Assembly (NCBI GenBank): GCA_052084925.1
Contig: JBQDEV010000015.1
Coordinates: 7,795-71,794, forward strand
Origin: Micrococcaceae bacterium
Lineage (GTDB): Bacteria > Actinomycetota > Actinomycetes > Actinomycetales > Micrococcaceae
DNA: 64,000 nucleotides
Direction: 5' to 3'
This document shows, piece after piece, positions 41,486 through 64,000 of the stretch. Positions within the stretch are counted from its first letter, which is position 1; every line of letters begins with the position of its first letter. Position numbers and translations under genes: made by a program. The notes below the pieces were generated by a model. It did no database searches. It saw only the letters and a program-made list of their open reading frames with translations, and had not been told where the DNA came from.

Positions 41486-41596
41486 GGGTCGCTCCTCGGA
41501 GAATCGGTGATCAGCATATCGACTGGTGTCGGTGATCCTCCATTTTACGCGCTCGGGCCGAGGACACCGTCCCGAGTGCTTCGCTACGCTGGACGG

Positions 41597-42283: not shown

Positions 42284-42291
42284 GGCGCGGC

Positions 42292-44377: not shown

Positions 44378-44480
44378 AAGCGACTTAGTGAGTTTAGCAG
44401 AGAACTAAGGCCTGCAGAAAATCCGCGGCGTCCAAGAAACGCGTCCGTCATCACCCCGAGCACACGCATAGGATGACGCT

Positions 44481-45541: not shown

Positions 45542-45583
45542 TTCTCGGCCAGCTCAGGGAGACCAGCTCAGCGAGAAACGGCG

Positions 45584-46948: not shown

Positions 46949-47329
46949 TGTCACACGGTGACTCACCTGACCAGCACACGCGCTCGCTAGTGACGGCTCC
47001 GATCGGCCTAGAATGGCGGTGCACCCTATGGACTCGCACGGAGGAGGAACGATGACGGATTCCCGTCGCGACGACCGTTCCGACCGTGCCGCGCATCGTG
47101 CCTGGCAGCACCGGTACGGCCAGCTCGTCGAAGAGCTGCTCGCCTCCGAGACGTGCACGTGCACCTGGGCCACGCAGCGCATCCGGCAGTGGGGCGGAAC
47201 ATATCTGGATCACCACTACCGGACCGAGTCCGACCCGCAATGCCCGCAGCACGGACATGAGCACGCCTCATGGTGGCTGCGCTGAGTCCAGCATGAGGCG
47301 TGCTCGGTGGTGATGATTCCGGCCGGTGC

Positions 47330-48691: not shown

Positions 48692-48768
48692 CTCGGGTTC
48701 CTTACTTCAAGGGGTACTTCACGAAGGTGGTCGTTCGAGTGATGGAGTGCGGGCGGATCAGGTTTCTG

Positions 48769-49935: not shown

Positions 49936-50000
49936 CCCGGCAGGCTATGACACAGCTCACACACATTTCGACGTGCGAATAGACCATATCTACTCGCACG

Positions 50001-51131
50001 TCAGCGACCGAATATGTGCACATCGCCTACAGCGGCTCGGGCATAGACCCCCATGAGCAAGGCCGTCAGATCGGCACCAATCCGGGGATCGTATCCCGTT
50101 CTGTTGACGATCTGCTCGACCCGCTGAGCCATGGTGTTGCGATGGATATACAGCCCCACGGCAGCGGCGTGGGTGGATGAGTGCTCGCCCAGGGCGAGAA
50201 CCGTCAAGCACTGTTCCAGAGTCAGCGCCTCGACCGATTCGGCGCGGTCCTTCACCGCGGCTCGAGGCATGTGCGCCACGGCGGAAGCGATCTCCCACCG
50301 CCAGCCAGGCGATTCGACCGCGTCAGCGGACTCGACGTTTTCGACCGAGGAGGCCATCGCCGGAAAGAGTCCAGGAAATGCGCAAGCATGGCGCAACATC
50401 ACGGCCTGCGCCTGGAGACGCTTGATCGAGGTGGTGGCAGGGAGCGCGATGAGCCGCTCCTGAACTGGTTTTGTCTTCGGTGACTTCGCGGCACCGGATC
50501 GCACCGTCCACACCGCGCCATAGAGTTCGGCGACCACCACGCCCTTTGCCCGGTTCAGGCGTCGGAGCTGCCCACGAGACGTTGCCGGAGGAACAGTGCT
50601 CATCGGATCCGATGGGTCAATGGTCAGTTCGACGGCGAGTGTCCACGGCGGGTGCATCGACAGAGCCGAGATGCGCGTGGTGAGTAGTTCTTCGTCCGTA
50701 GCGCCAGAGCTGAGCGCGGCGATAAAGTCGTGCGCCAACGTCTCCCGCTGCATATCGTCGTCGATCTGCCGTTCCTGGGTCAGCAGCAGCTCCACCGTCA
50801 AGGCGATCAACTCGGCCGTCGAACGAACATCATCAGGGTTACCGGTCAGCCCCACCACCCCACGCACAGCACCGTCGTACCAGAGTGGGATGTTGACGCC
50901 AGGACGGACTCCCGAGGTGTCATCTCGGTCCCAAATCTCGACGGGCTCTTGGGCAACCACAGCATCGAGTGCTCCCGCATGATGAGTGCCAACCCGCTCA
51001 GGGTCCACGGCGGCGATGATCACCCCGTGCGAGTCCATGATGTTGATGTTGTGACGCACCGTGGGCTTGATCGTGTCGATCACGTGCTGCGCCATGTCAC
51101 GAGTCATCAGCTCCGAAGCATGCTTCTTCAT
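50001..51131 (-). CDS. CdaR/PucR-family sugar-diacid regulator
   Basis: ATG 51131 (MKKHASELMTRDMAQHVIDTIKPTVRHNINIMDSHGVIIA = diacid_rec domain). C-terminal PucR HTH (LYIHRNTMAQRVEQIVNRTGYDPR). Confidence 0.8.
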   Translation of the reverse strand: MKKHASELMTRDMAQHVIDTIKPTVRHNINIMDSHGVIIAAVDPERVGTHHAGALDAVVAQEPVEIWDRDDTSGVRPGVNIPLWYDGAVRGVVGLTGNPDDVRSTAELIALTVELLLTQERQIDDDMQRETLAHDFIAALSSGATDEELLTTRISALSMHPPWTLAVELTIDPSDPMSTVPPATSRGQLRRLNRAKGVVVAELYGAVWTVRSGAAKSPKTKPVQERLIALPATTSIKRLQAQAVMLRHACAFPGLFPAMASSVENVESADAVESPGWRWEIASAVAHMPRAAVKDRAESVEALTLEQCLTVLALGEHSSTHAAAVGLYIHRNTMAQRVEQIVNRTGYDPRIGADLTALLMGVYARAAVGDVHIFGR

Positions 51132-51924
51132 TTCATGAACGGTATCAGCGCACGATGCGAGCAACAGTGATCGACCGCAGAATTGCCAATAGTCGGTTGA
51201 ACAGCGAATCACACTGTGTTTTCGACCCTGCACCACATCCCGTTAAGGAGTTGTCGAGAACAATTGCTACCGCGATTGACCCCCAGGTAGACGGTTCACC
51301 CCAGATCCTTGATTTTCCGGGCATCTCTGCCCCTCACACGGCCCGATTTCACGTCAAGGATTGCATGGTTTGCATGTATCAGGTCCCGGCCAGGTTCCTG
51401 CTCTTGATAGCCGACCGCAGATCCGTCAGGGGTTTACGTGGGGTTTATGAGAGGCTCGTCGCGCTCCCTCCCCCATCGTCAGGTACGACTCGAATCAAGA
51501 GCTCGGGAACACCGCCTTGAACGATGACGGCACGCGTGAATCGTTGAGACCCTTGGGCGAAGACGGAGCGAGAGACTCGGTCGAGTCCTGCCCCGCCCTT
51601 CCGATGTCACGGCATGATCTCAGACTCGATGCGCCCAACGTTCACAAGAAAGCTTGTGAACCGGTTCGCGGGAAAAGTTGTTGAGTGACGAGAAGTCGGA
51701 ACGTGAAGAGTAACGACCTGGCGTGACGTGAGCTCGTTGATGTTGCCGTCATGCGAGAGCAACGCCAGTGGGATCCGTCAATTCCTTAGCAAAAAGTGAG
51801 GGTATTGACGCATGTCAGGATCGGCGTCTTTGAACCTTTGGAAGCACTGCCACAGCGAAGTGGCGTAACACCTAATGCACCCCGTGATGACTTGCTTATC
51901 TCAGGTTGATGCAGAGTCTCTAGC

Positions 51925-52755
51925 TCAGACAGCATCCCATGCCGTGAGAAAAATAGGTTCTACCGCCTTAGACGAAAGCCCGGCTTCCTTCAGTAATTCC
52001 GCAGCCAGTGTTCCCACAAGCAACGCGACCATGTGATGCGTGCTGAGATCTCCATGCTGTATTGGCGGTGTGTCCAGACCGACCCGATCAGCTTCGGTCT
52101 TCGGCGCGTAGGCAACTGCCAGGTGTGCTGTCGCATGCGTGTACTGAGTCTCCTCACGCCAAGCGGTGTACAAGCCGAGCGTGATGGGCACTGCTTTCGC
52201 TGCGTCGGTGACGGCTTTCACCTGTTGCTTCAGGTCCTTGTCTTCCATCATGTCTGCTACGACGCTCTCCATTGCACTGAGATCGATATCGTGGTCGTAA
52301 CCCATCTCTTTAAGCGTGTCGAAGAAGCCGCTTGTGAGGTTCTTTTCTCGGGCAATGAACGTTTCGAGCACCGCCCCGCGCTTGTCTACTTCCAGCGTTC
52401 GGAGCCAGAGCAGGCGGAACGCGATCTCTGCGAATGCGCGACGGTTCGGCGCGGCCGCGTGAGCGAGCCCCTGAGCTGTCAGCGTTGCGATCACGCGGGA
52501 TTGGTCATACGCTGCCCGCATCCAGCCGATAATGAACTGAGAGTCGTACGCTGCTGGAACATAGGAGAGGTCAAGGGCCAACATTTGCTCGGCCGTCGCG
52601 ATGATGCGGGCTGCCTCTTGTTGCAGCGGGCTCAGGCGCGCCGCTCGCCGTTCCGCTTTTGCTCGCCGTCCGCTCATGCTTTCAACGTTACCCGTAGGCT
52701 GGTGCTCAGCGGGGCTTCCCCAGTTCAGTCTCCTGGCTGTTATCCGTGATGACAT
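51925..52755 (-). CDS. Hypothetical all-alpha protein, first gene downstream of the RT pair
   Basis: 276 aa (249 aa if ATG 52677 is used). No catalytic motif recognised. A helical core with GLAHAAAPNRRAFAEIAFRLLWL is vaguely reminiscent of DUF5677/AbiV-type proteins, from memory and unverified. Confidence 0.5.
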   Translation of the reverse strand: MSSRITARRLNWGSPAEHQPTGNVESMSGRRAKAERRAARLSPLQQEAARIIATAEQMLALDLSYVPAAYDSQFIIGWMRAAYDQSRVIATLTAQGLAHAAAPNRRAFAEIAFRLLWLRTLEVDKRGAVLETFIAREKNLTSGFFDTLKEMGYDHDIDLSAMESVVADMMEDKDLKQQVKAVTDAAKAVPITLGLYTAWREETQYTHATAHLAVAYAPKTEADRVGLDTPPIQHGDLSTHHMVALLVGTLAAELLKEAGLSSKAVEPIFLTAWDAV

Positions 52756-52962
52756 CGACAGCTGAGAACCCGATGCCTACCTGCACTTTGGATAGGGCCT
52801 CGACCGGTAGGGCTGAACGGATCGACCGGATCCGGGCGTTGTCAGATCTGACTCGCACCGGATTCCGTCGTATGAGAATTAGTCGGGAGTTCGATGCCGC
52901 TCGCTCCCGTGCGCCCGTGTGTCGAAGTCAATGACTCCGTGATTGCGGTCATGGCTGCGCCT

Positions 52963-55011
52963 CTAGTATACGAACTGGATCGACTTCAGGAGCAACCGTT
53001 CGTAGTAGTGCTCGCTTGCGTCCCAGGAAAACATGGACGGTGTCCTTTGGCTCGATCTGAGACTCTCAACCTGCCTCTTGGAGGCTTCCCCACCCATCGC
53101 CTTCGAGATTTCCTTCGTCGAGGCCCCGGGGAACATGGGGAGGCTAAGTAGAAGAATCGCACGAGCTGTCTCGTGCTCGGGTTGGTGACCGCCTTGCTCG
53201 ATCAGCACCCTTGCCCGATCCAGAAGCCCACGTTTTAGGGCGCTATTCGAGTCAGGGTTCTGGAACCTGCGAAGTAGAGTGAGTACGCCAAATACATCAA
53301 GGTCGCCGATCTTCTTCCCTCGACGCTCGAGGAACGATAGCAAGGTCTCCTCGGGGATCTTCGGATCTACGAATATGAGGCAGTCCAGGAGGAGTAAGGT
53401 GTGCGCTCCGAATGAAGCCTCGTCCTGCACCGCATTAAGCTGCGCAATGATCTCTCGGGCAACTTTGTCGGAAAACTGATCGGTCTCAAGCTTTCCCAAC
53501 CCGTTCACCTTCAGCTCACCCATAGAAGCTGCCACCATCCGTGTCAGTTTCACACTGTGCGACACCGAAGGAGCACCCGAGTAGATGAAGATTGCAACGT
53601 CCAAGACAGCCACAAGGTACTGAACGAGCTTCAACCGAGTTGCATGGATCGTTTTGGGATCTCCGGCTTCGACCGCCGCGTTCAGACACTTCCGGAACGC
53701 TCGGACACTCTTGTCCCTACGACGCCCGAGTTCGTACAGGTAGGAGTTTGCCAACTCACCGTGCTCAAGACCCGTATCCATGAGGAGAGCCTTGTAGTCA
53801 AGGATCGCTTTGCCGGACGGAAAGTACAGGCTGGCTTTCGTCGGTCCAATGTCGGGATCGTACTCATAGTGCGTACGCCGTTTGAGATCCTCGCGGATTC
53901 TCACCTTCGCAACAGACATATGGGATTGCAGCGGCGTATCGAAGTGACGCTGCTTCTGTTCGTTAAGGTGCAGTTTGAAGGTAGACAGCTGCGCAGCAAG
54001 AATCTCCTCGACGCGAGAAGCCATGTGAGGATCAGCCAGGAAGACGAAATAATCGTCCACGTATCGCATGACTTCGTAATTGGTCCCACGATTCAGACCA
54101 ATACTTGCCAGCTCTCGTTCGATCCTTACGTCTACTTCTTGCAGGATGATCTCAGCGAATACTCGCGAAAGCTCAGGTCCGATGATGATCCCGCTGGTCT
54201 CGGCATAGTTGACGTACTGCATGAGGTGATCAAATTTGTCGCCAAACGTTTCCTTGGTACCACGCCTATTTTTGCTGGCGCGGACGCCGTTGGTGACCCA
54301 TGAGACGGTGTGTGTATAAACGCTGTCGAAGCACTTGGAGACGTCTGCGCGCATAAGGTGGGGATATTTGCGTTCGCAGGCCTGGAATTCCGGCGACGAG
54401 TAGAAGCGGTTGATGTTGTTGTATCTACGGTAGCTGAAGTATGAGGAAACGTGCGTGTACTCGAGGTCGGATTGCTCGACGCCGTATGATTCTCGATCGA
54501 TGATGCCGTCAAAAATCGAGCTTGTCTTGGCTTGAAGTCTTGCGACCCTGTGAGGGTGCCTGATTGAGAAGCTACTTCGGTTCGTGTAATAAAGGATCGA
54601 GTCTCGGTGCTCGTGAATAAATGACGCCATTTGCACCATCGAGTGAGGGTGCGGGACCGATAGCTCTCGCGACTTTCCGTTGTTGCGTCGTGATCGGAAC
54701 TTGTAGGGGTGCCGAAGGTCGCAGTTTTTCTTGCCGCCACCACTGAGGTTGAACTCGATTGTCTTGTTGTCGTCAAGGAGGCAGCCCGAGCCTAGGCTGA
54801 TCGGATCGAAGATGAACTCGAGCCAGGATTTCTCAGCCTCACTGAGCCTCGATTTCAGTACGGTGAACTTGTTCTCTCCGGTCCAGTTGAATTTGAGCCA
54901 CCGAAGAAATTCGTATAGTCGCGTGATGTCGAATGGGATCGGCACCTCGTAGGGCAGAATCTCGGATGTCAGCGCACGTAGCGGGTCGCGCTTGGCTACG
55001 CGATACTTCAT
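52963..55011 (-). CDS. Defence-type reverse transcriptase with long helical C-terminal domain (UG/Abi class; UG8-like candidate)
   Basis: RT motifs RADVSKCFDSVYTH, SGIIIGPELSRVFAEIIL, catalytic MRYVDDYFVF, and HLNEQKQ. About 330 aa of alpha-helical C-terminus. No intron maturase or endonuclease domain. Its ATG overlaps the stop of the upstream RT (ATGA). Confidence 0.8.
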   Translation of the reverse strand: MKYRVAKRDPLRALTSEILPYEVPIPFDITRLYEFLRWLKFNWTGENKFTVLKSRLSEAEKSWLEFIFDPISLGSGCLLDDNKTIEFNLSGGGKKNCDLRHPYKFRSRRNNGKSRELSVPHPHSMVQMASFIHEHRDSILYYTNRSSFSIRHPHRVARLQAKTSSIFDGIIDRESYGVEQSDLEYTHVSSYFSYRRYNNINRFYSSPEFQACERKYPHLMRADVSKCFDSVYTHTVSWVTNGVRASKNRRGTKETFGDKFDHLMQYVNYAETSGIIIGPELSRVFAEIILQEVDVRIERELASIGLNRGTNYEVMRYVDDYFVFLADPHMASRVEEILAAQLSTFKLHLNEQKQRHFDTPLQSHMSVAKVRIREDLKRRTHYEYDPDIGPTKASLYFPSGKAILDYKALLMDTGLEHGELANSYLYELGRRRDKSVRAFRKCLNAAVEAGDPKTIHATRLKLVQYLVAVLDVAIFIYSGAPSVSHSVKLTRMVAASMGELKVNGLGKLETDQFSDKVAREIIAQLNAVQDEASFGAHTLLLLDCLIFVDPKIPEETLLSFLERRGKKIGDLDVFGVLTLLRRFQNPDSNSALKRGLLDRARVLIEQGGHQPEHETARAILLLSLPMFPGASTKEISKAMGGEASKRQVESLRSSQRTPSMFSWDASEHYYERLLLKSIQFVY

Positions 55012-56393
55012 CGAGCTCTTCCTTTCCAGATGCTCACGATCTGCTCGATTCGCTTCTGTCGGAACCTGAGAAATGTGTGGTTTGCAAACATCTCAACGAA
55101 CGAGATTTGCGCCATACGATCATTCATCTTCTTGGGCATCTTCGAGGCGTTGCTCTCGAGGAACGTTTGAAGAATCTCATCGAGTTCTGAGAGCTCATCT
55201 GCATCGGGAGCGAGCGCGCTGTTGGAGAAGTAAAGTCCGATAGCGACGTTACTCTTCGAGTTCAGGAGTTTGGTGTTTCCCGCGAGATACCGCACGCGAT
55301 CGAGGAGCAGGCCGTTGTGCCCATCGTTGGGAGAGGCTGGGTTCGGCGAGGTGTCTAACCAGACTTGCAGTGCCTTCTCAAGCCTCAAAACACGTCGCGC
55401 CTTGCGCTTTGTTGTCAGACCGGTAGTGAGACTGCCTCCGGCACGACAGAAGCGGTATCCGAGGTATTCGAGCTCCGTATTCGAAGGATAGTCTCCGCTC
55501 TCGCTGGTGACGAAATCCATCGTCTTTTCTTCGTTGAGAGCAAGCTGGAGCTCGTTCAACTCGGTAACGACTGCGTTCTTCACCTCAATGAGATGGTTCT
55601 CGCTTTCGAGGACCATGATCACGTCGTCTACATAACGTGCGTAGAACAGAACCCCTGGGTGCGTTTTTAGCTTGGAGTCGAAACGACTGAGATACAGCTC
55701 TGCGAGGTGTGAGCTGAGTCCGACGCCTCGCGGTAGCCCGATATTGGACCCTTGAAGTGCTTCGTATTCACTGAGCAAGCGATTGACAAGCTGGATGGTG
55801 ACTCTGTCGAGATCGGCATAAATGGCAAGGCGTTCAGTGAGCACGCTGTGGGGTATGGACTCGAAGAACTCCTTGACATCAACTTTGTAGATGGCATGGA
55901 GATACCCCTTACCGAGAGCTGCCTGGAGTGCTCGCACGATGCTGTTGCGGCTGGGGGCGTCTAATCGTGCAGCGCGCTTGACAGCATCTGCCGCTTGCTT
56001 CGCAGGGTAAGCGATGTACGTCTCAGGGGCGATGCGATAGGTGCGTCTCTGCTTGGGCCCAACCCGGGGACCTTCTCTTAGAGCAAATGTGAACTCGTCT
56101 GCGGACAGCCGTTCTTCAAATTCGAGAAGAGCCTTTTGCATGGCCGCTTCAACAGCCTCGTCGCGTTCTTTACGCAGTTCTTGCCTGTCTTCGCTGTAGT
56201 TTTTTCGTGCGTCGTCGCGAGCCTGTTTGTCTTCAAGTCGAGTGATCTCCTCCAGAAATCGCTCGCGCCTCTCTCGTAACGCCCGGGTCACACGTCGAAC
56301 GTGCGGGTCAATGCGGCTGATGTCCCGCCCACGGCGGTTCTCACTCTCGGCCAGCTCGATGAAGCTGCGAAGCGTGTACGGGATTTTCTTCAC
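55008..56393 (-). CDS. Defence-type reverse transcriptase (UG/Abi class; UG3-like candidate)
   Basis: RT motifs KVDVKEFFESIPH, IGLPRGVGLSSHLAELYL, catalytic YARYVDDVIMV, and ALNEEKT. Charged coiled-coil-like N-terminus. I prefer GTG 56393 (GAGG 7 nt upstream) over the tracked 56486. Confidence 0.8.
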   Translation of the reverse strand: MKKIPYTLRSFIELAESENRRGRDISRIDPHVRRVTRALRERRERFLEEITRLEDKQARDDARKNYSEDRQELRKERDEAVEAAMQKALLEFEERLSADEFTFALREGPRVGPKQRRTYRIAPETYIAYPAKQAADAVKRAARLDAPSRNSIVRALQAALGKGYLHAIYKVDVKEFFESIPHSVLTERLAIYADLDRVTIQLVNRLLSEYEALQGSNIGLPRGVGLSSHLAELYLSRFDSKLKTHPGVLFYARYVDDVIMVLESENHLIEVKNAVVTELNELQLALNEEKTMDFVTSESGDYPSNTELEYLGYRFCRAGGSLTTGLTTKRKARRVLRLEKALQVWLDTSPNPASPNDGHNGLLLDRVRYLAGNTKLLNSKSNVAIGLYFSNSALAPDADELSELDEILQTFLESNASKMPKKMNDRMAQISFVEMFANHTFLRFRQKRIEQIVSIWKGRAR

Positions 56394-56537
56394 GAAGCTA
56401 CCTCGATCCTCGATCTGCCCCCAGGAACACAGATGTGGACGTGAGCGAACAGAGACTCTCGCCGCTGTTGCTTGGCGTCCCACCACTCTGCACTGGGTGC
56501 TTCCGTCCCAGCGCTCCTCAACTCAACCGCTGCGGGC

Positions 56538-57509
56538 TCAGTCATCGACGTCCTCCTTACGGCTACGGTGAGACCGGTCATCGCGCACGCTCTCAGCGCT
56601 TATTGCACCCGCAGCTTCCCAGGCGTGAGAGGCAGGGATCCATCGCAGATCAGAGACGTCGTCCACGATGGCGGGCTCCGCGAAGGCCACACACGTTTTG
56701 AGCAGATCGTCAAATCTCTCTGGCGTGGACTGTTCAAGCCGCTGTTTCCTTCGCCAGATCCCCCACTTCCGCTGCGCCAGGGCAGGCATCCCCGAAAGGA
56801 GCAGGGAGAGTTCCTCAAGCTCAACCTGACGATAGCGAGCAACAACACCGATCGCCTCTTGGAGGTCCGTACCTTCAACGGTTCGGCTCCGGGCGATCGC
56901 GGCGATGTCGGTGAATTCGCGCCAACGTGTGTTCTGCTCACCGCGTTCGAGCGCGGTGACGATCTTCTCCGCGAGCACCATGTGATCGGGATATCCCAGG
57001 AGCCGCAGTGTCCCACCCAAAAGGAGTGGGAGGACCGCTTCTGTGGGTGCAGGCCAGATCGGGTCACCGAAGTTCACATCAATGTGCAGCGCAACCTGTG
57101 CTGTTGACAGCCGGGCAGTTATCTTGACCCGCACGCCGTTGTAGTCTGCTTCGTCACGGATCTGCTCTCCGCTGACGGAGTTCTCATCGAATTCGAGCCC
57201 GTCGTTACGCTGGACCGCGAGGATGTTGCAGACGCGCTGTTCGACCTCGGAGATGTCGTTCGTGAACCCTCGCGCGGCGAAATCGATGTCTCGCGTCGGT
57301 CGGCGTTCGGCGAACGCTGCCAAGAGCACGCCGCCCTTGAGGACAAAGTCTGCGGCGGACTCCGATGCTGCCAGCCGTGCGAGAAAACCTTCCAGCGCAT
57401 AGAGGGTGATGTATTCAGCAGGGTCACGGTTCTGCCGCCGGGCGAGGTTGCGCAGATCGTTGTATGCGCGCCCTGCTGGTGTATCTCTGGAGGGTGTCGG
57501 GGGCGTCAC
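56538..57509 (-). CDS. AbiEii/AbiGii-family nucleotidyltransferase toxin (type IV TA, DUF1814)
   Basis: LKGGVLLAAFAERRPTRDIDFAA ... YNGVRVKITARL ... HIDVNFGDP. GTG 57509 overlaps the AbiEi stop (GTGA). An alternative start is the internal ATG at 57560. Confidence 0.8.
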   Translation of the reverse strand: MTPPTPSRDTPAGRAYNDLRNLARRQNRDPAEYITLYALEGFLARLAASESAADFVLKGGVLLAAFAERRPTRDIDFAARGFTNDISEVEQRVCNILAVQRNDGLEFDENSVSGEQIRDEADYNGVRVKITARLSTAQVALHIDVNFGDPIWPAPTEAVLPLLLGGTLRLLGYPDHMVLAEKIVTALERGEQNTRWREFTDIAAIARSRTVEGTDLQEAIGVVARYRQVELEELSLLLSGMPALAQRKWGIWRRKQRLEQSTPERFDDLLKTCVAFAEPAIVDDVSDLRWIPASHAWEAAGAISAESVRDDRSHRSRKEDVDD

Positions 57510-58084
57510 AGGAGCACCTCCAGTGCTTGACGTATCCGAGGCAATGCTTTCGGGAACCATCCTGCAACCTTGAGTAGCCGCGCGGGCGTGTTTCCTCTCC
57601 GGCGAAGCCACCGTCTCAACGCCTCGTGTGCGACATCGCTGCCTTCTTGGTGCATGAGCCGGAAGCAGTCGACGATGGTCCGCTCCGCCGAATAGATAGC
57701 AACCCCTGCTCCTTCTCCGGCGTCAACGTGTTCTCGTCCGATCTGAAAGGTCTTCGGGTCGAAGCTATGCCAACTTACGTTCTTCAGCCCGGCTGGCTGG
57801 TGGGTTCCGCGTGGCAACGCGATGTCGGAAGCGAAAGGGATCGCATCGCTCAGATCATGGTGCACGAGAGCGCTCGTCAGGCACAGTGTCGCGTCGTCGC
57901 GCAACGCGGTCGCAGCGGCGAGCGCAGTGAAGGCTGGCGGGATGGCCTCAGGTCGCACGTAGACGCCACGCCCCACGCGCTCGATCTCGTCACGGTCGAG
58001 CAGCGAGTAGACCTGGTCCTTGCTGAGCCCCGCTGCGCGCGCGTCCTCCAGCGTGAACGCAGCAGCAAGCTCGTTCTTCGACAC
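57506..58084 (-). CDS. AbiEi-family antitoxin/transcriptional regulator
   Basis: N-terminal wHTH (FTLEDARAAGLSKDQVYSLLDRDEIERVGRGVYV) plus an AbiEi_4-type C-terminal domain. GTG 58084 is preceded by AGGAGG. Confidence 0.8.
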   Translation of the reverse strand: MSKNELAAAFTLEDARAAGLSKDQVYSLLDRDEIERVGRGVYVRPEAIPPAFTALAAATALRDDATLCLTSALVHHDLSDAIPFASDIALPRGTHQPAGLKNVSWHSFDPKTFQIGREHVDAGEGAGVAIYSAERTIVDCFRLMHQEGSDVAHEALRRWLRRRGNTPARLLKVAGWFPKALPRIRQALEVLL

Positions 58085-58090
58085 GGCATC

Positions 58091-58135
58091 CTCCTAACTC
58101 CCAACACATCAAGCGTATCTGTTGGCAGTTAGGAG
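58091..58135. promoter_or_regulatory. 16-bp inverted repeat spanning the AbiEi ribosome-binding site (candidate AbiEi operator or SD-sequestering hairpin)
   Basis: CTCCTAACTCCCAACA-N13-TGTTGGCAGTTAGGAG, 15/16 complementary. One arm contains the complement of the AGGAG Shine-Dalgarno. Confidence 0.55.
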
Positions 58136-58257
58136 AGCAAGAGGATCTATCGTTGGCGCGTCCAGCTTCCGCGACGGAAAGCGCCGTTAAAGGCAGTGGC
58201 ACGCGGGCGGACGCGGGTGAGCCCTGCCCCGGGCAGTGTTTCAACCCCGAGCGTCAG

Positions 58258-58971
58258 TCAGTTGAACTGGAACGTCCGGTAAGAGCTCTGCACGTTGAAA
58301 CGGCGACCCTCCTTCCGTCGCTGAAGGAACCCCGCGACTGTGTCAATGTCTCTCGGGCGCATGCCCAATTCCCGGCACTTTGCGCGCACTTGCTCGACGG
58401 TGATCGGAACCCAGCGATCCGGCCGATTCATCATGTCCGCCTTGAGCTTGTGTTCTTCGTTCCACTTCAATCCTGACGAGTACCCAGCCGCCATAGAGGC
58501 AATGTGCTCGAGAATTCCCTCGACCCCGTTCGGTAGAGGCTCTCGCTCCTGAGCATCGGCTTCCCGAGTCGTCGGCGGCAGAGTTGAGTCGCGCAGAAGT
58601 TGCGCGGGGTTGGCATCTTCGACCCATTCCACTGTCTCTTCCTCGTTCCACTCAATAACGGCAAGCGCATCCGCCTCAACACCCCACAGTTCGTTCAGGT
58701 GCTTACGATCAGGCCAGGCATAGAGGACTCGATGTCCAGCAAGAGCCCCAGTCGAGAGTCCTCGCCAGCTCAGGTGCAGCACCCCAGGTCGGGTGACCAA
58801 GCGTTTCAGGCTGTCGCCGTGGAACTGCTTCTGCGGTGTGACAACCACGACCGACCCGCCGGGCTGCTCGAGCAGCCATTTGATCGCGCGCATGTTCTGT
58901 GGTTCGCGGGATGTCTCACCTTCACTCAATCGAGAGATAGCTACGGGAAACTGGTAAGCGCTGGAAGTCAT
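58258..58971 (-). CDS. Hypothetical protein (no recognisable family)
   Basis: 237 aa. Good RBS (AAGGAG 7 nt upstream of ATG 58971). Two-domain appearance separated by an acidic Pro/Thr linker. Confidence 0.55.
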   Translation of the reverse strand: MTSSAYQFPVAISRLSEGETSREPQNMRAIKWLLEQPGGSVVVVTPQKQFHGDSLKRLVTRPGVLHLSWRGLSTGALAGHRVLYAWPDRKHLNELWGVEADALAVIEWNEEETVEWVEDANPAQLLRDSTLPPTTREADAQEREPLPNGVEGILEHIASMAAGYSSGLKWNEEHKLKADMMNRPDRWVPITVEQVRAKCRELGMRPRDIDTVAGFLQRRKEGRRFNVQSSYRTFQFN

Positions 58972-59089
58972 TGCGCATCTCCTTACGTCGGGTTTGGAAT
59001 GCCCACGCTAATTGCAGCCTCCGACATTCCCTGACAGGAGGATCATCACTCAACGCTGATAGGTCAATCGCTTGTCGATCCTATTGCCA

Positions 59090-60271
59090 TCAGCTTGCCT
59101 TCCCGAATGCTTGTTCCAGGAACTCGGCTGTGATCGGGTTCACTGCCTCGTTGCGGCGAATGTAGTGCTCTCTCGTGATCGATGGGTCGCTGTGGCCGAG
59201 GAGTTCGGAGGCAAGCTGCAGTCCTCCGATTTCGTTGATCGCTGTTGCGGCGGTCCGGCGGAAGCGGTGCGGGGTCACGTCTGCGACCCCGGCTTTATCC
59301 ATGACGTCGCGGAGCTGCCTGCGGACGTTGTTGGTCGTGTGCGGCGTCCCGACACGGGTCGCGAACAGCAGCGCGTCCGGGTGTGTGAAGCGGATCTTCT
59401 TGAGTCGCGCTTTGATCGCACGGAGCGCGAACCCTGGTAGGGCGACTCGTCGAACAGAGCGGGCCGTCTTGGGGTGATCCTGTCGGTGCGTGGGCTCGCC
59501 TTTACGACTCACGATCGTTCCCGAGATCCGCACGGACGGGATCGGAGCGTCCAGATCAAGGTCTCCGAGTCGGATCGCGAGGAGCTCTCCGATGCGGGCG
59601 GAGGTACCGAGCATGACTTCGACGATCTGCCCCAGTTGCCCATCCGGCTTCGGGCCTGCCTTGATCAGGCGTTGCTCCCACGCGCTGATGCCAGTGCGGA
59701 TGGCTTTGAGCTCGTCCCAGGTGAAGATGTCCGGGGTGCGTGCGGGGCGGCGGAGCCGGGAGACATGGTCCATCGGGTTGCGCGGGATGACTTCGTGCCG
59801 CACCGCGAGCGAAAGGACGAGGCGGAGAACGACTCGGGCTTGACGTGCCCGGTTGTAGCTCTTCTTCGCGAGTTGCTTGAGGAAGTAGTCGCAGCGTGCC
59901 ACTCCGATCTCGCGGAGCGTGACCTCTTTGAAGAACGGCAAGACGAGGGTGCGCATGTTGCGCTCGTAGAGCAGCCTGGTCGTTGGCGAGAGCCGATCCT
60001 CGAGATGCATGTCTTCAAGCCAATAGGACACGAGCGCCGGGAAGGAACTGTCTGCGCTCATCCCCGAGAACCCTGGATGGAAGAGATCTCGTTCGGAGAG
60101 CTTCTTCTTCAGCGCGCGCTCCGCGCTGGGCCTGGTCGCACCGGTGACTTGGACGTGTCGCCCCTTCCCATCCCAGTCGCGGTATCGCGTGCGAGCGACG
60201 TATCGTCCACCGTCGGTGCGGCGGGTGGTGATGATGCCGAAGGTTCCGATCGGAGTGCGGGGTCTAGCCAC
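59090..60271 (-). CDS. Tyrosine-type site-specific integrase
   Basis: Arm-binding-like N-terminus (GRYVARTRYRDWDGKGRHV), SAM-like core-binding domain, and catalytic residues in TSARIGELLAIR ... HRFRRTAAT ... LGHSDPSITREHYIRR. GTG 60271 with GGAGG upstream. Confidence 0.88.
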   Translation of the reverse strand: MARPRTPIGTFGIITTRRTDGGRYVARTRYRDWDGKGRHVQVTGATRPSAERALKKKLSERDLFHPGFSGMSADSSFPALVSYWLEDMHLEDRLSPTTRLLYERNMRTLVLPFFKEVTLREIGVARCDYFLKQLAKKSYNRARQARVVLRLVLSLAVRHEVIPRNPMDHVSRLRRPARTPDIFTWDELKAIRTGISAWEQRLIKAGPKPDGQLGQIVEVMLGTSARIGELLAIRLGDLDLDAPIPSVRISGTIVSRKGEPTHRQDHPKTARSVRRVALPGFALRAIKARLKKIRFTHPDALLFATRVGTPHTTNNVRRQLRDVMDKAGVADVTPHRFRRTAATAINEIGGLQLASELLGHSDPSITREHYIRRNEAVNPITAEFLEQAFGKAS

Positions 60272-60394
60272 GAACGCGCACCTCCGCGACCTCGTGAGGG
60301 ATCGGCCAACCTGGAGACTCTGCGCTGTGGAGTTGCTGTTGCATCATTCAATTTTGGGATGCTGCCCATACTTCCTGCGCGCGCCCCTCGCTGA

Positions 60395-60532
60395 GAGGAG
60401 CAGATCGCTGAGGTGGTGCAGCACTACCTCGACGGCCGCAGCAGGCACGATATCGCAGCCGAGTTCAGGGTCAGAACAGCGACAATCTGGCGAACGCCCA
60501 AAGGTGAGAGCGGCGAGTCACGACCGTTAACC
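60395..60532 (+). pseudogene. Start-less remnant resembling a recombinase/transposase HTH domain
   Basis: The frame following a TGA reads EEQIAEVVQHYLDGRSRHDIAAEFRVRTATIWRTPKG... This has an HTH_7/resolvase-like pattern (G-x-S-x-x-x-IA-x-x-F-x-V-x-x-x-T-I-x-R). It lacks a start codon and a catalytic domain. Confidence 0.3.
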
Positions 60533-60642
60533 TGCAGGAGGAAGGCCGACCGGTGAAATTGCGCATACCTCTATTCTTCGCGGGTCGACCGGGCGAAGCT
60601 CGGAGTTCCTCAACGATGAACCGAAAGACGTGTGGCGTGCTC

Positions 60643-62397
60643 TTAACCTTCGTCGAGATCGATAGAAAAGTGTAGTCGTTGACCAAGGATGCTGCCGGTT
60701 TCGTCACCATCGTGGAGTCTGAGCACGATCGCGTCATCGAAGATCGCTCGGTCAGTGAACTCGCCCCAGGGAACGTGATCGCTATTTACTGTGAGGAGGT
60801 GCTGGTAGCCATACTCAGTCGCTGACGCAGCAGCAATTTCAATGGCTCGAGCGGTCTGTCTCTCATCGACGTCGGCGAAGATCGCGCTGTCATGGATGAG
60901 GAAGCCAGGGCCTCGGTCGTCGCTCGCGAGATCTTCGCTCAATGCGATGTCGTAAGCGAAGATGGCCATCAGGTGGACGCCCCCCGATCCGGTCTTCGGG
61001 AGCACCACCTTGAACTGCATGCCGCTCTTTCCTGGGGACACGCGTAGGTCGGCAGGTTCGCCGTAAAGAGCTTCCATGATCTCGCCGAACCGGGCAACGA
61101 TCCCTGCGCGACGCTCGAATCTCTCCTGCATGTCGAGTTTCGTCCGAGTGACAAGGTCGAGTTCGTCAGATTTCAGCTTGGACTTACGGTCGCTCAGATC
61201 GCGGAGGGTTTGGATCTGCTCTTCCACCTGGGCAACTTCAACTTGTGATTCGGCGAGGCTGCGCTGCAGTGCAACGAGGTCGTCGAGCGCTCCACCGGTT
61301 CGCAGAAGCTGCATGTCTTGCTCTTGCTGCTCAGCGAGACGTGCTTGCTCGCTCTCACGCTGCAGGATTCGTTCACGGAGCCGACGGGTCTCTTCTGCGA
61401 GGTAGGCCGCGCGGTTTGTAGTGATCTGCCCCTGGAACTCCGCTGCTTCATCAAGGCTACGGACGATTGCGTCGCCTAGGACGATGCCAGCTTCGGCGAA
61501 GAGCCGTTCGACGTTGAGGTCGCTCGAGGTGAACTCGTCCTGCACCTGCGACTCATACAGTGCGAGCTGCTGCCGATCCGCAAAGTTCTCATTGCCGAGG
61601 GCTTTGATTCGCTGGGTGCTGTCCTGAACCCGCGACTCAATGTCTCGGTATTCGGGTAGGACTGAGAAGGTACTGATGTCCTTCGTCAGTCTTTCTGCGC
61701 GACGTTGGAGCCGCACGAGCTGCGGTTCCAACGCTGCGATGCGCGATTCAATCGAGTTGTCTGGATCGTCGGCGAGCGCGACGCGTGCCTTGCGGTCCCG
61801 GAGGTTCGCCCATTCCTTTGCGAATCGCCAGTCGAGGTTCAGCAGGTAGGCGTTTTCTGCCTGCACTGCTTCGGCGGCCTGGTTCGCGAGGGTGCTGAAC
61901 GGTCCGAGCAGGGAGTCAGCACGAAACCGAGCGAAGTGGCGTATGAGGCTGCGGAACGTGGGCGGGTCCGCAGGCATCCCGTCGCGAACGAAGCATTCAC
62001 GTCCAAGCCAGTTGGTCCACTTGCGAGTGCCCACTGTTGCGGTGCCGTCGTCAGCGAGATCCTTCTGCTCGACAATCCCTGCAGCGACCACGCCGCCTTC
62101 GAGGTGGATCTGACCGGAGGTATCTGGGCTGCGCGATGCCAGCACAGTGACCCCGGCTCGGGTAGTTAAGGACAGCGTGAAGTACCAGTTGTTGCCCCTC
62201 ATCTGTTCGAGGCGGTCGCTCATATTCGCGCCCAGGCAAAAGTCGATGAGCGCGATGGCGGTAGTCTTACCGAGCCCGTTTCGCGAGTCGGTCTTCGTGG
62301 CTTCTTTGGCGCGATCTGCAACGACGATGTTGAGTCCATCGTTGAAGCTGATTGACCGGAACCCCGAGAAACTCGCAGTGAGCGAATTCAAGCGCAT
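60643..62397 (-). CDS. ABC-three-component (ABC-3C) system ATPase, DUF2326-type
   Basis: ATG 62397 (MRLNSLTASFSGFRSISFNDGLNIVV). Walker A SRNGLGKTT, a long coiled-coil insert, and a C-terminal PGFLIHDSAIFADVDERQ (Walker B/D-loop region). Confidence 0.75.
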   Translation of the reverse strand: MRLNSLTASFSGFRSISFNDGLNIVVADRAKEATKTDSRNGLGKTTAIALIDFCLGANMSDRLEQMRGNNWYFTLSLTTRAGVTVLASRSPDTSGQIHLEGGVVAAGIVEQKDLADDGTATVGTRKWTNWLGRECFVRDGMPADPPTFRSLIRHFARFRADSLLGPFSTLANQAAEAVQAENAYLLNLDWRFAKEWANLRDRKARVALADDPDNSIESRIAALEPQLVRLQRRAERLTKDISTFSVLPEYRDIESRVQDSTQRIKALGNENFADRQQLALYESQVQDEFTSSDLNVERLFAEAGIVLGDAIVRSLDEAAEFQGQITTNRAAYLAEETRRLRERILQRESEQARLAEQQEQDMQLLRTGGALDDLVALQRSLAESQVEVAQVEEQIQTLRDLSDRKSKLKSDELDLVTRTKLDMQERFERRAGIVARFGEIMEALYGEPADLRVSPGKSGMQFKVVLPKTGSGGVHLMAIFAYDIALSEDLASDDRGPGFLIHDSAIFADVDERQTARAIEIAAASATEYGYQHLLTVNSDHVPWGEFTDRAIFDDAIVLRLHDGDETGSILGQRLHFSIDLDEG

Positions 62398-62398
62398 G

Positions 62399-62626
62399 TC
62401 AAACTTCCCATCGGAGAACGCCAGAATTGATGGTGACTGCACCGATCATGAAGAGCAGCGTCAGCGCTTCGGTGAACGAGTCGAAAGATGCATCCGTTGC
62501 GCTGCTTCGGTAGGCGTGCCAGAGCTCGCTAACCGTCGGGTTGCTGTCGCGTAGGGGCAGGATAGTCGCTGCGCGACCGAGGATGCTATCCGAAGCGGGC
62601 ACGTATTTGGTCGGGAGGATCATCAT
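62399..62626 (-). CDS. ABC-3C middle component
   Basis: 75 aa: MMILPTKYVPASDSILGRAATILPLRDSNPTVSELWHAY ... LTLLFMIGAVTINSGVLRWEV. The start overlaps the effector stop (ATGA). Its stop lies 1 nt before the ATPase ATG. Confidence 0.65.
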   Translation of the reverse strand: MMILPTKYVPASDSILGRAATILPLRDSNPTVSELWHAYRSSATDASFDSFTEALTLLFMIGAVTINSGVLRWEV

Positions 62627-63498
62627 GCCGGTGCCTCGAAGACATCGCACACCTGGAACAAGTGGCAGAGGACTGCTGCGGCCGCTGCATGCAACACGAA
62701 GAGCCGACCTCCATCTGTCTGGGGAGAGATGGCGCTGCTGGCACCGAAGTCAATCAGTGAGAGGAAAAGTGCGTCACCCTTCGCGCCGCTGGCAACGAGT
62801 CGGTCATACTCGCTAACAAATCCTGCTCGCAGCCGTTCCGGGAAGCGTGAGGAGAGCTGTGCCTGACGGCGGATGTACTCGGCTACCTGAGGAGCCTGAG
62901 CGAGCCCGATGTTCATTGTGGGGCGAATAGCGTCAGTGAGCTCGTTCGTGTCCATCTTCGTCTGCGGTGGCACTGCGATCATCGGAGTCGATGGAAGGTC
63001 GATGTCGCCGTCCGCGAAGGCGTTGCAGACGATCTGTAGCTCCGCGAACGACACCTGCGTCGCCCCAGCCGACAGCCGATCAGTGACTGCTTTTTCGGCT
63101 GCGCGCTTCCACTCTTTGAGCGTCTCGACCGGATAGTCCGAATCGATCTTGTCGACGAGGCTGTGATGGTGCGCGCAGAGGACGAGCAGATTCGGATAGC
63201 TATCTCGCTGTGCGGGGGTGAGTGCGGGATTAGGACGAGGTCCGTCGTCTGAGGATCCTTCGATGTGCGCAATCTGACCGAGGATCACAGGGCCGTCAGT
63301 CTTGAACTCAACGATAGCCGAGCCGCAGTTCGGGTACGGGCAGAAGTGACCCGACGTGAGGAACAGTTGTTTCAAGGTCAAGTGCGAGTAGTTCCGTGCC
63401 ACCTGACCTCCCCGTCTGGTTGCGTGATTCTGGTACGACGCGGCGAGCCCACGTAGGGACTCGCCATGTCCCATCCTCTCATGTGTCCGAACTCGCAA
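62623..63498 (-). CDS. HNH endonuclease fused to an ABC-3C C-terminal (CTD) adaptor domain: predicted effector
   Basis: CPYPNCGS ... IAHIEGSSDDGPRPN ... YPNLLVLCAHHHSLVD (HNH with Zn-ribbon Cys/His). About 170 aa of helical C-terminus. First gene of a three-gene overlapping operon. Confidence 0.7.
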   Translation of the reverse strand: MRVRTHERMGHGESLRGLAASYQNHATRRGGQVARNYSHLTLKQLFLTSGHFCPYPNCGSAIVEFKTDGPVILGQIAHIEGSSDDGPRPNPALTPAQRDSYPNLLVLCAHHHSLVDKIDSDYPVETLKEWKRAAEKAVTDRLSAGATQVSFAELQIVCNAFADGDIDLPSTPMIAVPPQTKMDTNELTDAIRPTMNIGLAQAPQVAEYIRRQAQLSSRFPERLRAGFVSEYDRLVASGAKGDALFLSLIDFGASSAISPQTDGGRLFVLHAAAAAVLCHLFQVCDVFEAPA

Positions 63499-63598
63499 GA
63501 GCCACGCTCTGGTACTGTCCGCGTGTGATTCCTCGGTGACGAGCGCGCCGCAGGAATCCGTCGGGTATGGAGCTTACAAGCCGTTCGACTGCGGAGCC

Positions 63599-63925
63599 TC
63601 AATCGGCGACGCGAGCTTGCCGCACCTCGCGGAGGCGAGCGCTGGCGAGAAGGGCGAGGCTGACGGGGCCGATCCAAAGAAACTTCAGCCCGTTCCAGAG
63701 CAGCAGGAGGAAAAGCGGGTAGAGCCACTTACTCCAGCCCTGCTCGATGAGTCCGGTGCAGGTGGCTGCGATCATCAGGTAGACGACCCCGAGGAACATC
63801 GCGGGGATTCCCCATTTGAGGCCGCGTCGGGTGCGCAGCGTGTCGAGCAAGATGTTGGTGGGCATCCAGCGGCGCATGAAGATGCGGGTGTGGATGCTGG
63901 CGTTCCAGAGCCGGTTCAGGAGCAT
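63599..63925 (-). CDS. Hypothetical small membrane protein
   Basis: 108 aa with two or three TM helices (WGIPAMFLGVVYLMIAATCTGLI, LYPLFLLLLWNGLKFLWIGPVSLALLA). Lies 100 nt upstream of the ABC-3C operon. Confidence 0.45.
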   Translation of the reverse strand: MLLNRLWNASIHTRIFMRRWMPTNILLDTLRTRRGLKWGIPAMFLGVVYLMIAATCTGLIEQGWSKWLYPLFLLLLWNGLKFLWIGPVSLALLASARLREVRQARVAD

Positions 63926-64000
63926 GATGTGGGCCTCACTTTCGCACGCAGGACTATCGCGGTGTGGCTGGTCCTGAGTGGTTGAGTGCCCGAGATACCT

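Follow-up and report, generated by a model that had tools for sequence, protein, structure and literature searches.

A cdaR-adjacent defence island in a Micrococcaceae genome is probably the cargo-bearing end of a decayed TrwC-relaxase mobile element

Results

Composition and gene content of the island

The window (the whole 64,000-nucleotide stretch of contig JBQDEV010000015.1 that was analyzed) changes in character past cdaR. From a G+C content of 66.9% in its chromosomal part (1–51131) it drops to 58.6% in 51132–64000, and in 1-kb windows the mean is 0.670 for the chromosome (sd 0.028, minimum 0.602) and 0.584 for the island (sd 0.033). The lowest values within the island are those of the DRT3 genes (0.54–0.55), the rest of it being at 0.58–0.64. 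The minus strand encodes all 12 intact genes (Table 1). These results bear out a preliminary description of this DNA, which had reported a drop in composition and accessory genes after cdaR, all intact genes on a single strand, and gene identities and an order that agree with our Pfam and PADLOC profile results.

The genome analyzed here is probably that of a Citricoccus. Two related Citricoccus genomes are syntenic with the window up to cdaR and then have different content. At this site C. muralis has a tRNA-Thr gene, a DUF6308 gene, and, adjoining cdaR, an orphan AbiEi (75% identical to the island AbiEi) with a 7-codon AbiEii stub, and Citricoccus sp. NR2 has GmrSD and IS elements. The block is thus neither conserved and syntenic in all relatives nor free of compositional deviation; it is a real accessory defence island, encoding three known anti-phage systems. 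Just past the window's right end an IS3 copy truncates a TrwC relaxase gene, of which the last ~51 codons are left, and an IS110 copy follows. The right boundary lies outside the window, as had been proposed; copies of IS3 and IS110 terminate every available contig.

Table 1. Features of the island and its cdaR-proximal flank, in order of transcription of the minus strand.
Feature	Position	Strand	Evidence or remark
unk108, small membrane protein, 108 aa	63599..63925	-	Follows TrwC relaxase; hydrophobic segment at ~ residues 36-61
HNH nuclease with CTD10, ABC-3C effector, 252 aa	62623..63381	-	PADLOC PDC-M68A E 5.5e-92
ABC-3C middle component MC6, 75 aa	62399..62626	-	Pfam MC6 E 3.7e-11
ABC-3C/Lamassu-like SMC-type ATPase, 584 aa	60643..62397	-	PADLOC PDC-M68B E 2.3e-191; LmuB E 1e-15; Pfam DUF2326
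HTH-like remnant, 47-aa ORF	60413..60556	+	Translation EEQIAEVVQHYLDGRSRHDIAAEFRVRTATIWR; recognized by eye
Conserved region upstream of integrase	60272..60402	-	CCAGACTTGAAGGATGCA-like motif; DNA homology with L030 and L040 reaches 60357-60402
Tyrosine integrase, 393 aa	59090..60271	-	Pfam Phage_integrase E 9.5e-20; PHROG 1 E 1.9e-50
unk237, 237 aa	58258..58971	-	Putative mobile cargo, strongly conserved across Actinomycetota
AbiEi antitoxin and regulator, 192 aa	57506..58084	-	PADLOC AbiEi E 4e-52; Pfam AbiEi_4
AbiEii nucleotidyltransferase toxin, 323 aa	56538..57509	-	Pfam AbiEii E 2.1e-31; PADLOC E 7.6e-79
Drt3a, UG3 class 2 reverse transcriptase, 461 aa	55008..56393	-	PADLOC Drt3a E 1e-86; YVDD
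Drt3b, UG8 class 1 reverse transcriptase, 682 aa	52963..55011	-	PADLOC Drt3b E 9e-148
DRT3 non-coding RNA candidate, 207-nt spacer	52756..52962	-	ACACAC template at 52917-52922, unpaired between two hairpins
unk250, all-helical, 250 aa	51925..52677	-	Distant DUF5677 relative; putative mobile cargo
Element terminal segment, ~190 bp	51276..51464	-	Arm-type repeat CAGGAACCTGGCCGGGACCTG at 51380-51400
att core CTGGGGGTCAA, 11 nt	51276..51286	-	Anticodon-loop sequence of tRNA-Pro(GGG); three-way homology breakpoint
Flank between cdaR and att core, chromosome side	51153..51275	.	G+C 0.507

Three known defence systems

A PADLOC run on the block matched ABC-3C (PDC-M68), AbiE, and DRT3 genes. At least four independent modules had been counted previously; the number of known systems is three, as the two reverse transcriptases represent two halves of DRT3. 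The HNH-CTD10, MC6, and ATPase genes are assigned by their profile matches to a Lamassu-like ABC-3C system (PADLOC PDC-M68). The effector's Pfam CTD10 match (E 0.0018) is below the curated cut-off; its gene and that of MC6 share an ATGA overlap, and the ATPase has the Walker A motif GLGKTT. As in the three-component Lamassu/ABC-3C systems, a DUF2326 SMC-like ABC ATPase, a small MC6 protein, and an HNH-CTD10 effector are encoded in one operon, but the ATPase matches LmuB models weakly and PADLOC lists PDC-M68 as a candidate system. In the literature we found no experimental test of this ABC-3C subtype. The AbiE genes share a GTGA overlap and resemble the AbiE type IV toxin-antitoxin pair, with AbiEi (N-terminal winged helix) and the AbiEii nucleotidyltransferase both giving strong profile matches; there is no notable difference from that family.

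The drt3a and drt3b genes share an ATGA overlap and, with the downstream RNA candidate, make up one complete DRT3 system. Both enzymes have the YVDD motif, and Drt3b has E22 (in LPYEVP), an invariant R283, Y317VDD, and the C-terminal Y682, matching E22, R241, YVDD, and the C-terminal priming tyrosine Y666 of EcoDRT3b (PMC13174585). The position of the RNA candidate and its ACACAC motif agree with the described DRT3 RNA, in which the motif also lies in a downstream non-coding region between hairpins (PMC13174585). This motif, expected 0.02 times per 208 nt, occurs ≤260 nt downstream of drt3b in all seven of the plasmid DRT3 loci compared. The candidate (52756–52962) had no Rfam match and folded no more stably than shuffled sequence (z-score -0.76, not significant). 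The island system differs from known DRT3 in that its Drt3b is 25–32% identical to proteobacterial and Bacteroides plasmid copies and its ACACAC lies 44 nt past the drt3b stop codon.

Cargo proteins unk237 and unk250

Two further proteins behave as mobile cargo. Homologs of unk237 number 462, with identities of 66–92% among the 120 matches listed, yet it had no match in Pfam, PADLOC, NCBIfam, or PHROGs. Its AlphaFold2 model (pLDDT 82) has an N-terminal alpha/beta domain and a C-terminal helical domain, the latter resembling PDB 2es9 (function unknown). The unk237 gene is near tRNA-Pro(GGG) in two other loci (L010 and L012), where it has a methyltransferase or GmrSD gene as neighbor, and is absent from the other integrase-bearing relatives.

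There are 49 homologs of unk250, all those with a named source being from Microbacteriaceae; a search of 1.84 billion representative proteins gave 85 clusters. A DUF5677 match was obtained for 13 of 23 family members, that of the window protein itself being below the curated cut-off. The family has the invariant motifs APNRR and WREETQYTH, and the AlphaFold2 model (pLDDT 75) had no match in the PDB. A 276-aa version of this protein (extending to 52755) was rejected as the real start is M27, giving 250 aa. Elsewhere unk250 is found beside CBASS, a type I R-M system and helicase, or IS21.

Conserved backbone

The third gene lacking an assignment, unk108, has 769 homologs and lies directly 3' of TrwC in L017, L019, L021, L030, and L040 and near it in L022 and L034 (L numbers denote related loci); DNA identity of its region to relatives is 82–89%. 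Because at least eight loci have it after the TrwC relaxase, whatever their cargo, we consider it a backbone gene rather than a defence candidate. The preliminary description had proposed defence or anti-defence roles by association for all three genes. That proposal does not hold for unk108, but association is still reasonable for unk237 and unk250 (51925–52677) as candidates; in other islands each turns up again, beside defence systems that differ.

The tyrosine integrase has 93% amino acid identity (tblastn) to the L. tardus copy (L006), with almost no differences in the C-terminal ~295 residues, and 91–94% identity to a Changpingibacter pseudogene (L022). Its cluster at ≥90% identity spreads across families, covering Pseudoclavibacter, Rarobacter, and Leucobacter, and it was found in 17 metagenome loci. 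The region upstream, whose CCAGACTTGAAGGATGCA-like motif is present in nine loci, is probably the integrase promoter or operator. A Pfam search of ORFs overlapping the adjacent HTH-like remnant gave no match. The location of the integrase inside the element, not at its end, is unusual and could mean that two elements have fused in tandem.

The terminal segment has 87% identity to L006 (13873–14059) and L040 (19195–19368) and 77% to L031, and the 3' half of tRNA-Pro adjoins it in L006, L031, L035, and L040. At 51276–51286 homology to the element relatives (L006, L031, L040) stops and homology to Citricoccus sp. NR2 begins. In L006 a 48-bp attL/attR direct repeat at tRNA-Pro(GGG), the first 11 nt of which are CTGGGGGTCAA, encloses a 13.6-kb island. 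Based on these alignments we place the cdaR-proximal boundary at the att core, instead of at 51132 as previously proposed. The flank from there to cdaR is common to NR2 (L055), is absent from the element relatives, and could represent the degraded 3' half of a tRNA gene, although its match to that of tRNA-Pro is weak (14/29 positions identical, compared by eye).

Two observations count against a mobile-element origin: the far-side gene in C. muralis is tRNA-Thr, not tRNA-Pro, and a search of the window and a 2.8-kb extension of it for attL or a tRNA-Pro gene gave neither.

Cargo slots in relatives

The integrase, unk108, terminal segment, and att core are kept at 80–90% DNA identity in distant genera while the cargo differs. 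Slot 1, between unk108 and the integrase, holds the Lamassu-like ABC-3C system here, ShosA (ShosTA) and Gabija in L040, and PDC-S06 in L030; it is empty in L031, L033, and L034, leaving a gap of 150–230 bp. Slot 2, between the integrase and the terminal segment, holds unk237, AbiE, DRT3 with its RNA candidate, and unk250 here, QatACD and PDC-S53 in L040, a type II R-M methyltransferase locus in L031, IetAS and SIR2-HerA in L035, and AAA_21/RloB and CBASS III in L006 and L022. The modules, previously pictured as independently stacked, fill two defined slots, one on each side of the integrase, in a recurring mobile-element backbone.

Discussion

We believe that the block is probably the cargo-bearing end of a decayed integrative TrwC-relaxase mobile element (ICE- or IME-like) circulating among Actinomycetota. 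On the minus strand its backbone would run from the TrwC relaxase through unk108, slot 1, the promoter and tyrosine integrase, slot 2, and the ~190-bp terminal segment with arm-type repeats to the att core. A point against this reading is that the ~3–10 kb upstream of TrwC in relatives, where genes for conjugation or coupling proteins might be expected, had none of these but MFS, AraC, and TetR genes instead.

It is conceivable, though unlikely, that two elements lie in tandem, a relaxase element that ends at unk108 and gained ABC-3C at its edge, and an independent island running from integrase to att, so that it is their adjacency that recurs and not a backbone. Consistent with this, an integrase in L039 (65% identical) directly follows tRNA-Pro(GGG) and is followed by AbiE, with neither relaxase nor unk108; the L006 island begins at tRNA-Pro with integrases and lacks unk108; and in L017–L021 the gene after unk108 encodes 395 aa and chromosomal DNA comes next, without such an integrase. 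However, unk108 and the integrase are separated by neither an att core nor a tRNA fragment in the window, L022, L030, L031, L033, L034, L040, or L044, their adjacency recurs in at least nine independent contigs from different families, and an empty slot 1 leaves a gap of just 150–230 bp.

The picture in the preliminary description, a purely chromosomal island assembled through independent insertions at a tRNA-adjacent hot spot without a coherent backbone, seems improbable. The modules do differ in G+C, the three Citricoccus genomes have three different contents at one site, and IS elements flank the block, but backbone conservation in distant genera largely contradicts this reading, and a relaxase remnant is present. 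Phage satellites carry defence hot spots, and the integrase matches phage integrase families (PHROG 1), but a prophage remnant or satellite (PICI- or P4-like) with defence genes is the least credible origin, given that none of the tested genes matched capsid, terminase, primase, or other phage families, IMG/VR had no relatives of the integrase or Drt3b, and the mobility gene linked to the block encodes a TrwC conjugative relaxase.

Hotspot 5 of the SXT/R391 ICEs in Vibrio (bioRxiv 10.1101/2020.12.16.423150) and the modular hot spots of Pseudomonas genomic islands (PMC12629846) resemble this element in having a conserved backbone with fixed slots, anti-phage systems that differ per slot among related elements, and tRNA-linked integration by a tyrosine integrase. 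Our element differs in its hosts (Micrococcales and Actinomycetales), in its backbone of TrwC relaxase, 108-aa membrane protein, and integrase between two slots, in its att core in the tRNA-Pro(GGG) anticodon loop, and in the decay of the island copy.

If the block is the end of a TrwC-relaxase element, that element would once have transferred by conjugation or mobilization, and cargo would have been exchanged in its slots. The copy described here is probably no longer mobile, because IS3 cuts the relaxase and IS110 lies next to it. Its three known systems are self-contained, translationally coupled operons predicted to act as their families do. AbiE would function as a type IV toxin-antitoxin/abortive-infection pair, and in ABC-3C the sensing of foreign DNA by the SMC-like ATPase would release the HNH nuclease. 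In DRT3, Drt3a would synthesize poly(dT-dG) on the ACACAC RNA template, while protein-primed poly(dC-dA) would come from Drt3b, the two annealing to double-stranded DNA and leading to abortive infection; the RecBCD/Gam trigger logic of E. coli DRT3 may not apply here, because the host is an actinobacterium.

Gene content and composition of the island

The G+C content is 66.9% in the chromosomal part of the window (1–51131) and 58.6% in 51132–64000. A plot in 1-kb windows (chromosome mean 0.670, sd 0.028; island mean 0.584, sd 0.033) places the fall directly after cdaR, where the preliminary description had put it, and the lowest values within the island (0.54–0.55) belong to the DRT3 genes. 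All of the genes named in that description were found, in the order and on the minus strand as given there, with the HTH-like remnant on the plus strand. Start and stop codons overlap at Drt3a-Drt3b (ATGA), AbiEi-AbiEii (GTGA) and HNH-MC6. An Rfam scan of 49000–64000 at E ≤ 1 returned no match and a promoter and terminator scan gave nothing exceeding the shuffled expectation.

Features of the island and the adjoining chromosomal gene (window coordinates)
Feature	Coordinates	Strand	Assignment or remark
cdaR	50001–51131		Diacid_rec + HTH_30
unk250	51925–52677	-	true start M27, hence 250 aa, not 276
Spacer	52756–52962	-	207 nt
Drt3b	52963–55011	-	PADLOC E 9e-148
Drt3a	55008–56393	-	PADLOC E 1e-86
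AbiEii	56538–57509	-	PADLOC E 7.6e-79; Pfam AbiEii E 2.1e-31
AbiEi	57506–58084	-	PADLOC E 4e-52; Pfam AbiEi_4 E 2.7e-8
unk237	58258–58971	-	no family match
Tyrosine integrase	59090–60271	-	Pfam; PHROG 1
HTH-like remnant	60413–60556	+	
ABC-3C ATPase	60643–62397	-	PDC-M68B E 2.3e-191; DUF2326
MC6 middle component	62399–62626	-	Pfam E 3.7e-11
HNH-CTD10 effector	62623–63381	-	PDC-M68A E 5.5e-92; CTD10 E 0.0018, under the Pfam cut-off
unk108 membrane protein	63599–63925	-	no family match

Three defence systems are recognized. The ABC/SMC-like ATPase, middle component and effector with an ABC-3C C-terminal domain correspond to PDC-M68, a candidate system in PADLOC, the AbiEi antitoxin followed by the AbiEii nucleotidyltransferase toxin to AbiE, and the adjacent UG3 (Drt3a) and UG8 (Drt3b) reverse transcriptases (RTs) in a single operon to DRT3. 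At least four independent modules had been counted previously; however, since the two RTs are halves of one DRT3, there are three, and a count of four would require unk237 or unk250 to be a separate system.

The G+C content also dips, though less, at 23000–25500 (0.60–0.61), beside tRNA-Arg(CCT) (22930–23003), where a beta-lactamase-family protein and an NlpC/P60 hydrolase are encoded. We rejected this dip as a second island because its genes look ordinary.

A conserved backbone with two cargo slots

Related loci (L-numbers), found via homologues of the unassigned genes and of the integrase, revealed DNA-level conservation of four pieces of the block in distant genera, with different genes between them. 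Identity to relatives is 82–89% for the unk108 region (63620–64000) and 74–90% for the integrase plus its ~130-bp upstream region (59085–60402), and the terminal segment (51276–51464) is 87% identical to those of Leucobacter tardus (L006) and L040; for unk250, DNA-level conservation is restricted to L. tardus. A TrwC relaxase of 1100–1176 aa lies upstream of unk108 in relatives. In a same-strain contig that extends 2.8 kb past the window (L014), TrwC is reduced to its last ~51 codons (L014 2482–2634; window-equivalent 64131–64283), which abut an IS3-family copy (orfA/orfB) followed by an IS110 transposase, within L014 19–2371, and all available contigs of this strain end at IS3/IS110. The window element has its integrase, a 51-codon remnant of a relaxase that is intact in relatives, and an identified attR and core. 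An attL was looked for without success, and none of the compared loci extends to the element's far end.

The pieces delimit two cargo slots, one between unk108 and the integrase (slot 1) and one between the integrase and the terminal segment (slot 2), whose contents vary among the loci. About 95 bp ahead of the start codon of the integrase, at 60340–60372, lies a conserved CCAGACTTGAAGGATGCA-like motif that recurs at the equivalent position in L030, L031, L033, L034, L035, L036, L040, and L044. This motif, probably the promoter or operator of the integrase gene, delimits slot 1 on its inner side.

Cargo of the two slots in the window and in related loci
Locus	Slot 1	Slot 2
Window	ABC-3C (PDC-M68)	unk237, AbiE, DRT3, unk250
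L040/L042	ShosA + partner, Gabija	QatA, 250-aa ORF without assignment, QatC, QatD, PDC-S53
L030	PDC-S06	
L031	empty	type II methyltransferase, 871-aa protein (weakly REase-like, with GHKL-ATPase domains), two unknowns
L033, L034	empty (150–230 bp)	
L035		IetA/IetS, SIR2-HerA
L006 (L. tardus)	absent	AAA_21/RloB, type III CBASS, 423-aa unknown, unk250, ApeA
L022 (Changpingibacter)	two small ORFs	AAA_21/RloB, CBASS operon start (locus end)
L039 (integrase 65% identical; tRNA-Pro directly upstream)		AbiE

Several other slot proteins are further candidates for undescribed defence genes. Two in L006 have no Pfam match (8552–9823, 423 aa; 12328–13473, 381 aa), and two others have neither a Pfam nor a PADLOC match (L040 13352–14104, 250 aa; L031 5655–7532, 625 aa). 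TrwC and unk108 of Changpingibacter are separated by an Erm-like rRNA adenine dimethylase gene (RrnaAD; L022 3911–4720) and an IS3 copy, and resistance cargo may therefore also enter the element here.

We favour a single element made up of all these pieces, but the relaxase-unk108 and integrase-att parts could instead form a stable tandem, and this is the main uncertainty. No att copy lies between the two parts in nine loci; however, the integrase part stands alone at tRNA-Pro in L006 and L039. A prophage or satellite was rejected, as no phage gene was found among the genes tested, and neither the integrase nor Drt3b had relatives in IMG/VR. Neither a coupling protein nor a T4SS or FtsK-like translocase, the conjugation machinery that sets an ICE apart from an IME, was seen in the 3–10 kb upstream of TrwC in L030, L034, and L017–L021, a stretch too short to exclude such genes. 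In the Microbacterium-type loci L017–L021, a conserved 395-aa protein (6617–7804, minus strand) without a Pfam match comes after the relaxase and unk108 homologue, and different chromosomal genes lie beyond it; it could be the recombinase of a variant of the element, or that variant's end gene.

Members of the integrase cluster at ≥90% identity include proteins of Pseudoclavibacter, Rarobacter, and Leucobacter, and the host GntP clusters at ≥90% with those of Citricoccus muralis and Citricoccus sp. NR2, which marks the host as Citricoccus-like. Together these relationships indicate that the backbone has crossed family boundaries recently. The clustering of defence genes would then be a product of slot-wise exchange of cargo on a transferable backbone, and the window copy would have decayed afterwards, with IS3 cutting the relaxase and no attL found.

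Integration site

The 13.6-kb island of L. tardus has a 48-bp direct repeat at both ends. The repeat corresponds to the 3' portion of tRNA-Pro(GGG), with CTGGGGGTCAA as its first nucleotides, and in L031, L035, and L040/L042 this tRNA half likewise comes after the terminal segment. Similarity between the window and the element relatives stops exactly at CTGGGGGTCAA (51276–51286), and similarity to Citricoccus sp. NR2, which has a different island there, starts at the same 11 nt. Because these breakpoints coincide, the cdaR-proximal boundary is fixed and the recombination core is identified; the sequence past the core, 51153–51275, is chromosomal flank. In a comparison of this flank with the tRNA 3' half, 14 of 29 positions agree, which may reflect a decayed tRNA remnant or chance. 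Att-like repeats within 50800–64000 were limited to short ones at chance level, and neither the window nor L014 contained 3' fragments of tRNA-Pro or tRNA-Thr. In Microbacterium aurantiacum (L009 20017–20150), an intact tRNA-Pro(GGG) has a second 5' tRNA-Pro fragment 90 bp off, a sign of repeated integration there.

The same site was compared in other genomes through members of the host's GntP cluster. C. muralis (CP121252) is syntenic with window 37256–51152 at 83–89% DNA identity, and beside cdaR (L054 6003–7560) it has tRNA-Thr(UGU), DUF6308, an AbiEi 75% identical to that of the window, and an AbiEii stub consisting of the first seven codons only. This site is a deletion derivative without the equivalent of 51153–57492. 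Here the AbiEi antitoxin has outlived its toxin, and DUF6308 may be an alternative partner of the orphan. Citricoccus sp. NR2 is syntenic as far as the att core, past which it has GmrSD and IS elements. Rather than being conserved and syntenic in all relatives, the region past cdaR differs in both Citricoccus genomes, which bears out the earlier view of the block as an accessory island. Exact look-ups of cdaR and unk250 found the island on every identical-cdaR contig that extends over the site, so that no empty site is available and the island is fixed within the strain cluster; a cdaR search of genome contigs gave unrelated Firmicutes HTH matches only.

The DRT3, AbiE and ABC-3C systems

In EcoDRT3, an ncRNA downstream of drt3b presents a conserved ACACAC template within a loop, poly(dT-dG) is the Drt3a copy of this template, and poly(dC-dA) is made by Drt3b without a nucleic-acid template, with nucleotides selected by E22 and R241 of EcoDRT3b and priming by Y666 (PMC13174585, a 2026 study). 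The window locus has ACACAC at 52917–52922, 44 nt past the drt3b stop, where a predicted MFE fold leaves it unpaired between two hairpins. The chance expectation is 0.02 occurrences per stretch of the spacer's length, and all seven plasmid DRT3 loci compared have ACACAC ≤260 nt downstream of drt3b. The fold of the candidate RNA is no more stable than that of shuffled sequence (z = -0.76), and no Rfam model matched it. YVDD is present in both RT translations (Y317-D320 in Drt3b). Drt3b also retains E22, within LPYEVP, an invariant C-terminal Y682, and an invariant R283, which is 34 residues ahead of YVDD (35 in EcoDRT3b) and is equated with R241 on the basis of this spacing.

Judged from its sequence, the DRT3 locus appears complete, having both RTs, a candidate ncRNA with template, and the key residues. 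Although the window Drt3b is only 25–32% identical to the plasmid copies compared, the window DRT3 shares with EcoDRT3 the ACACAC template and those residues that, according to the EcoDRT3 study, enforce protein-templated synthesis. By analogy, this DRT3 would be expected to act as reported for EcoDRT3 (PMC13174585).

The modes of action of the AbiE and ABC-3C families are established, and the two systems here would similarly be expected to act as their families do. No experimental report of anti-phage or anti-plasmid activity of PDC-M68 was found in the literature searched.

Genes without assigned function

Three genes had been put forward as candidates for defence or anti-defence functions. 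This no longer holds for unk108, which has 769 homologues and at least one strong hydrophobic segment: because it follows TrwC whatever the cargo, it is part of the element backbone. For unk237 and unk250, which by sequence comparison behave as mobile cargo, such a role is still plausible.

The unk250 family is narrow (49 close homologues; 85 clusters among 1.84 billion representative proteins). A match to DUF5677 (PF18928) at E ≤ 0.01 was obtained for 13 of 23 members (best E 1.3e-5). As unk250 itself scores 17 bits, below the gathering cut-off of 27.1 bits, it is a distant DUF5677 relative and not a member by the Pfam rule; a DUF5677 literature search found nothing usable. Its invariant motifs are APNRR and R174-x6-H181, and its predicted structure is all-helical. 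HEPN nucleases are defined by a four-helix fold and a catalytic Rx4-6H motif. Assignment of unk250 as a HEPN nuclease is neither supported nor excluded, as the R-x6-H stretch is modeled at pLDDT <50 and Foldseek gave no HEPN or other PDB match. Homologues of unk250 sit at the tail of various defence operons with no constant partner. We rejected unk250 as a DRT3 accessory, since its homologues adjoin CBASS, type I R-M with a helicase, or IS21, and never DRT3.

There are 462 homologues of unk237, with 66–92% identity across many genera among the matches listed (120). It had no family match in four libraries and no sequence relative in the PDB. A confident model predicts an alpha/beta domain and a C-terminal helical domain similar to a Salmonella protein without known function; Foldseek suggests weak P-loop-like alpha/beta similarity, and no Walker A motif was evident by eye. 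The gene is found in tRNA-Pro-linked islands, beside GmrSD or a methyltransferase, and the other integrase relatives lack it.

It is possible, if rather doubtful, that at least one of unk237 and unk250 has an undescribed single-gene anti-phage or anti-defence function and has been spread among Actinomycetota by relaxase-and-integrase elements with two dedicated defence slots that target the anticodon-loop core of tRNA-Pro(GGG). No description of such an element family was found in the literature searched. The general kind, a defence hot spot on a mobile element, is already known, with SXT ICE hotspot 5 and Pseudomonas genomic islands as parallels; the Actinomycetota example is a new member of it.

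Implications

The divergent DRT3 is a useful test of the generality of the reported mechanism, and of whether it depends on RecBCD in another host. The list of candidate genes is narrowed, with unk108 out and unk237 and unk250 retained. Actinomycetota are under-sampled for immunity, and searches of the slots in relatives offer a practical route to new defence genes in this phylum.
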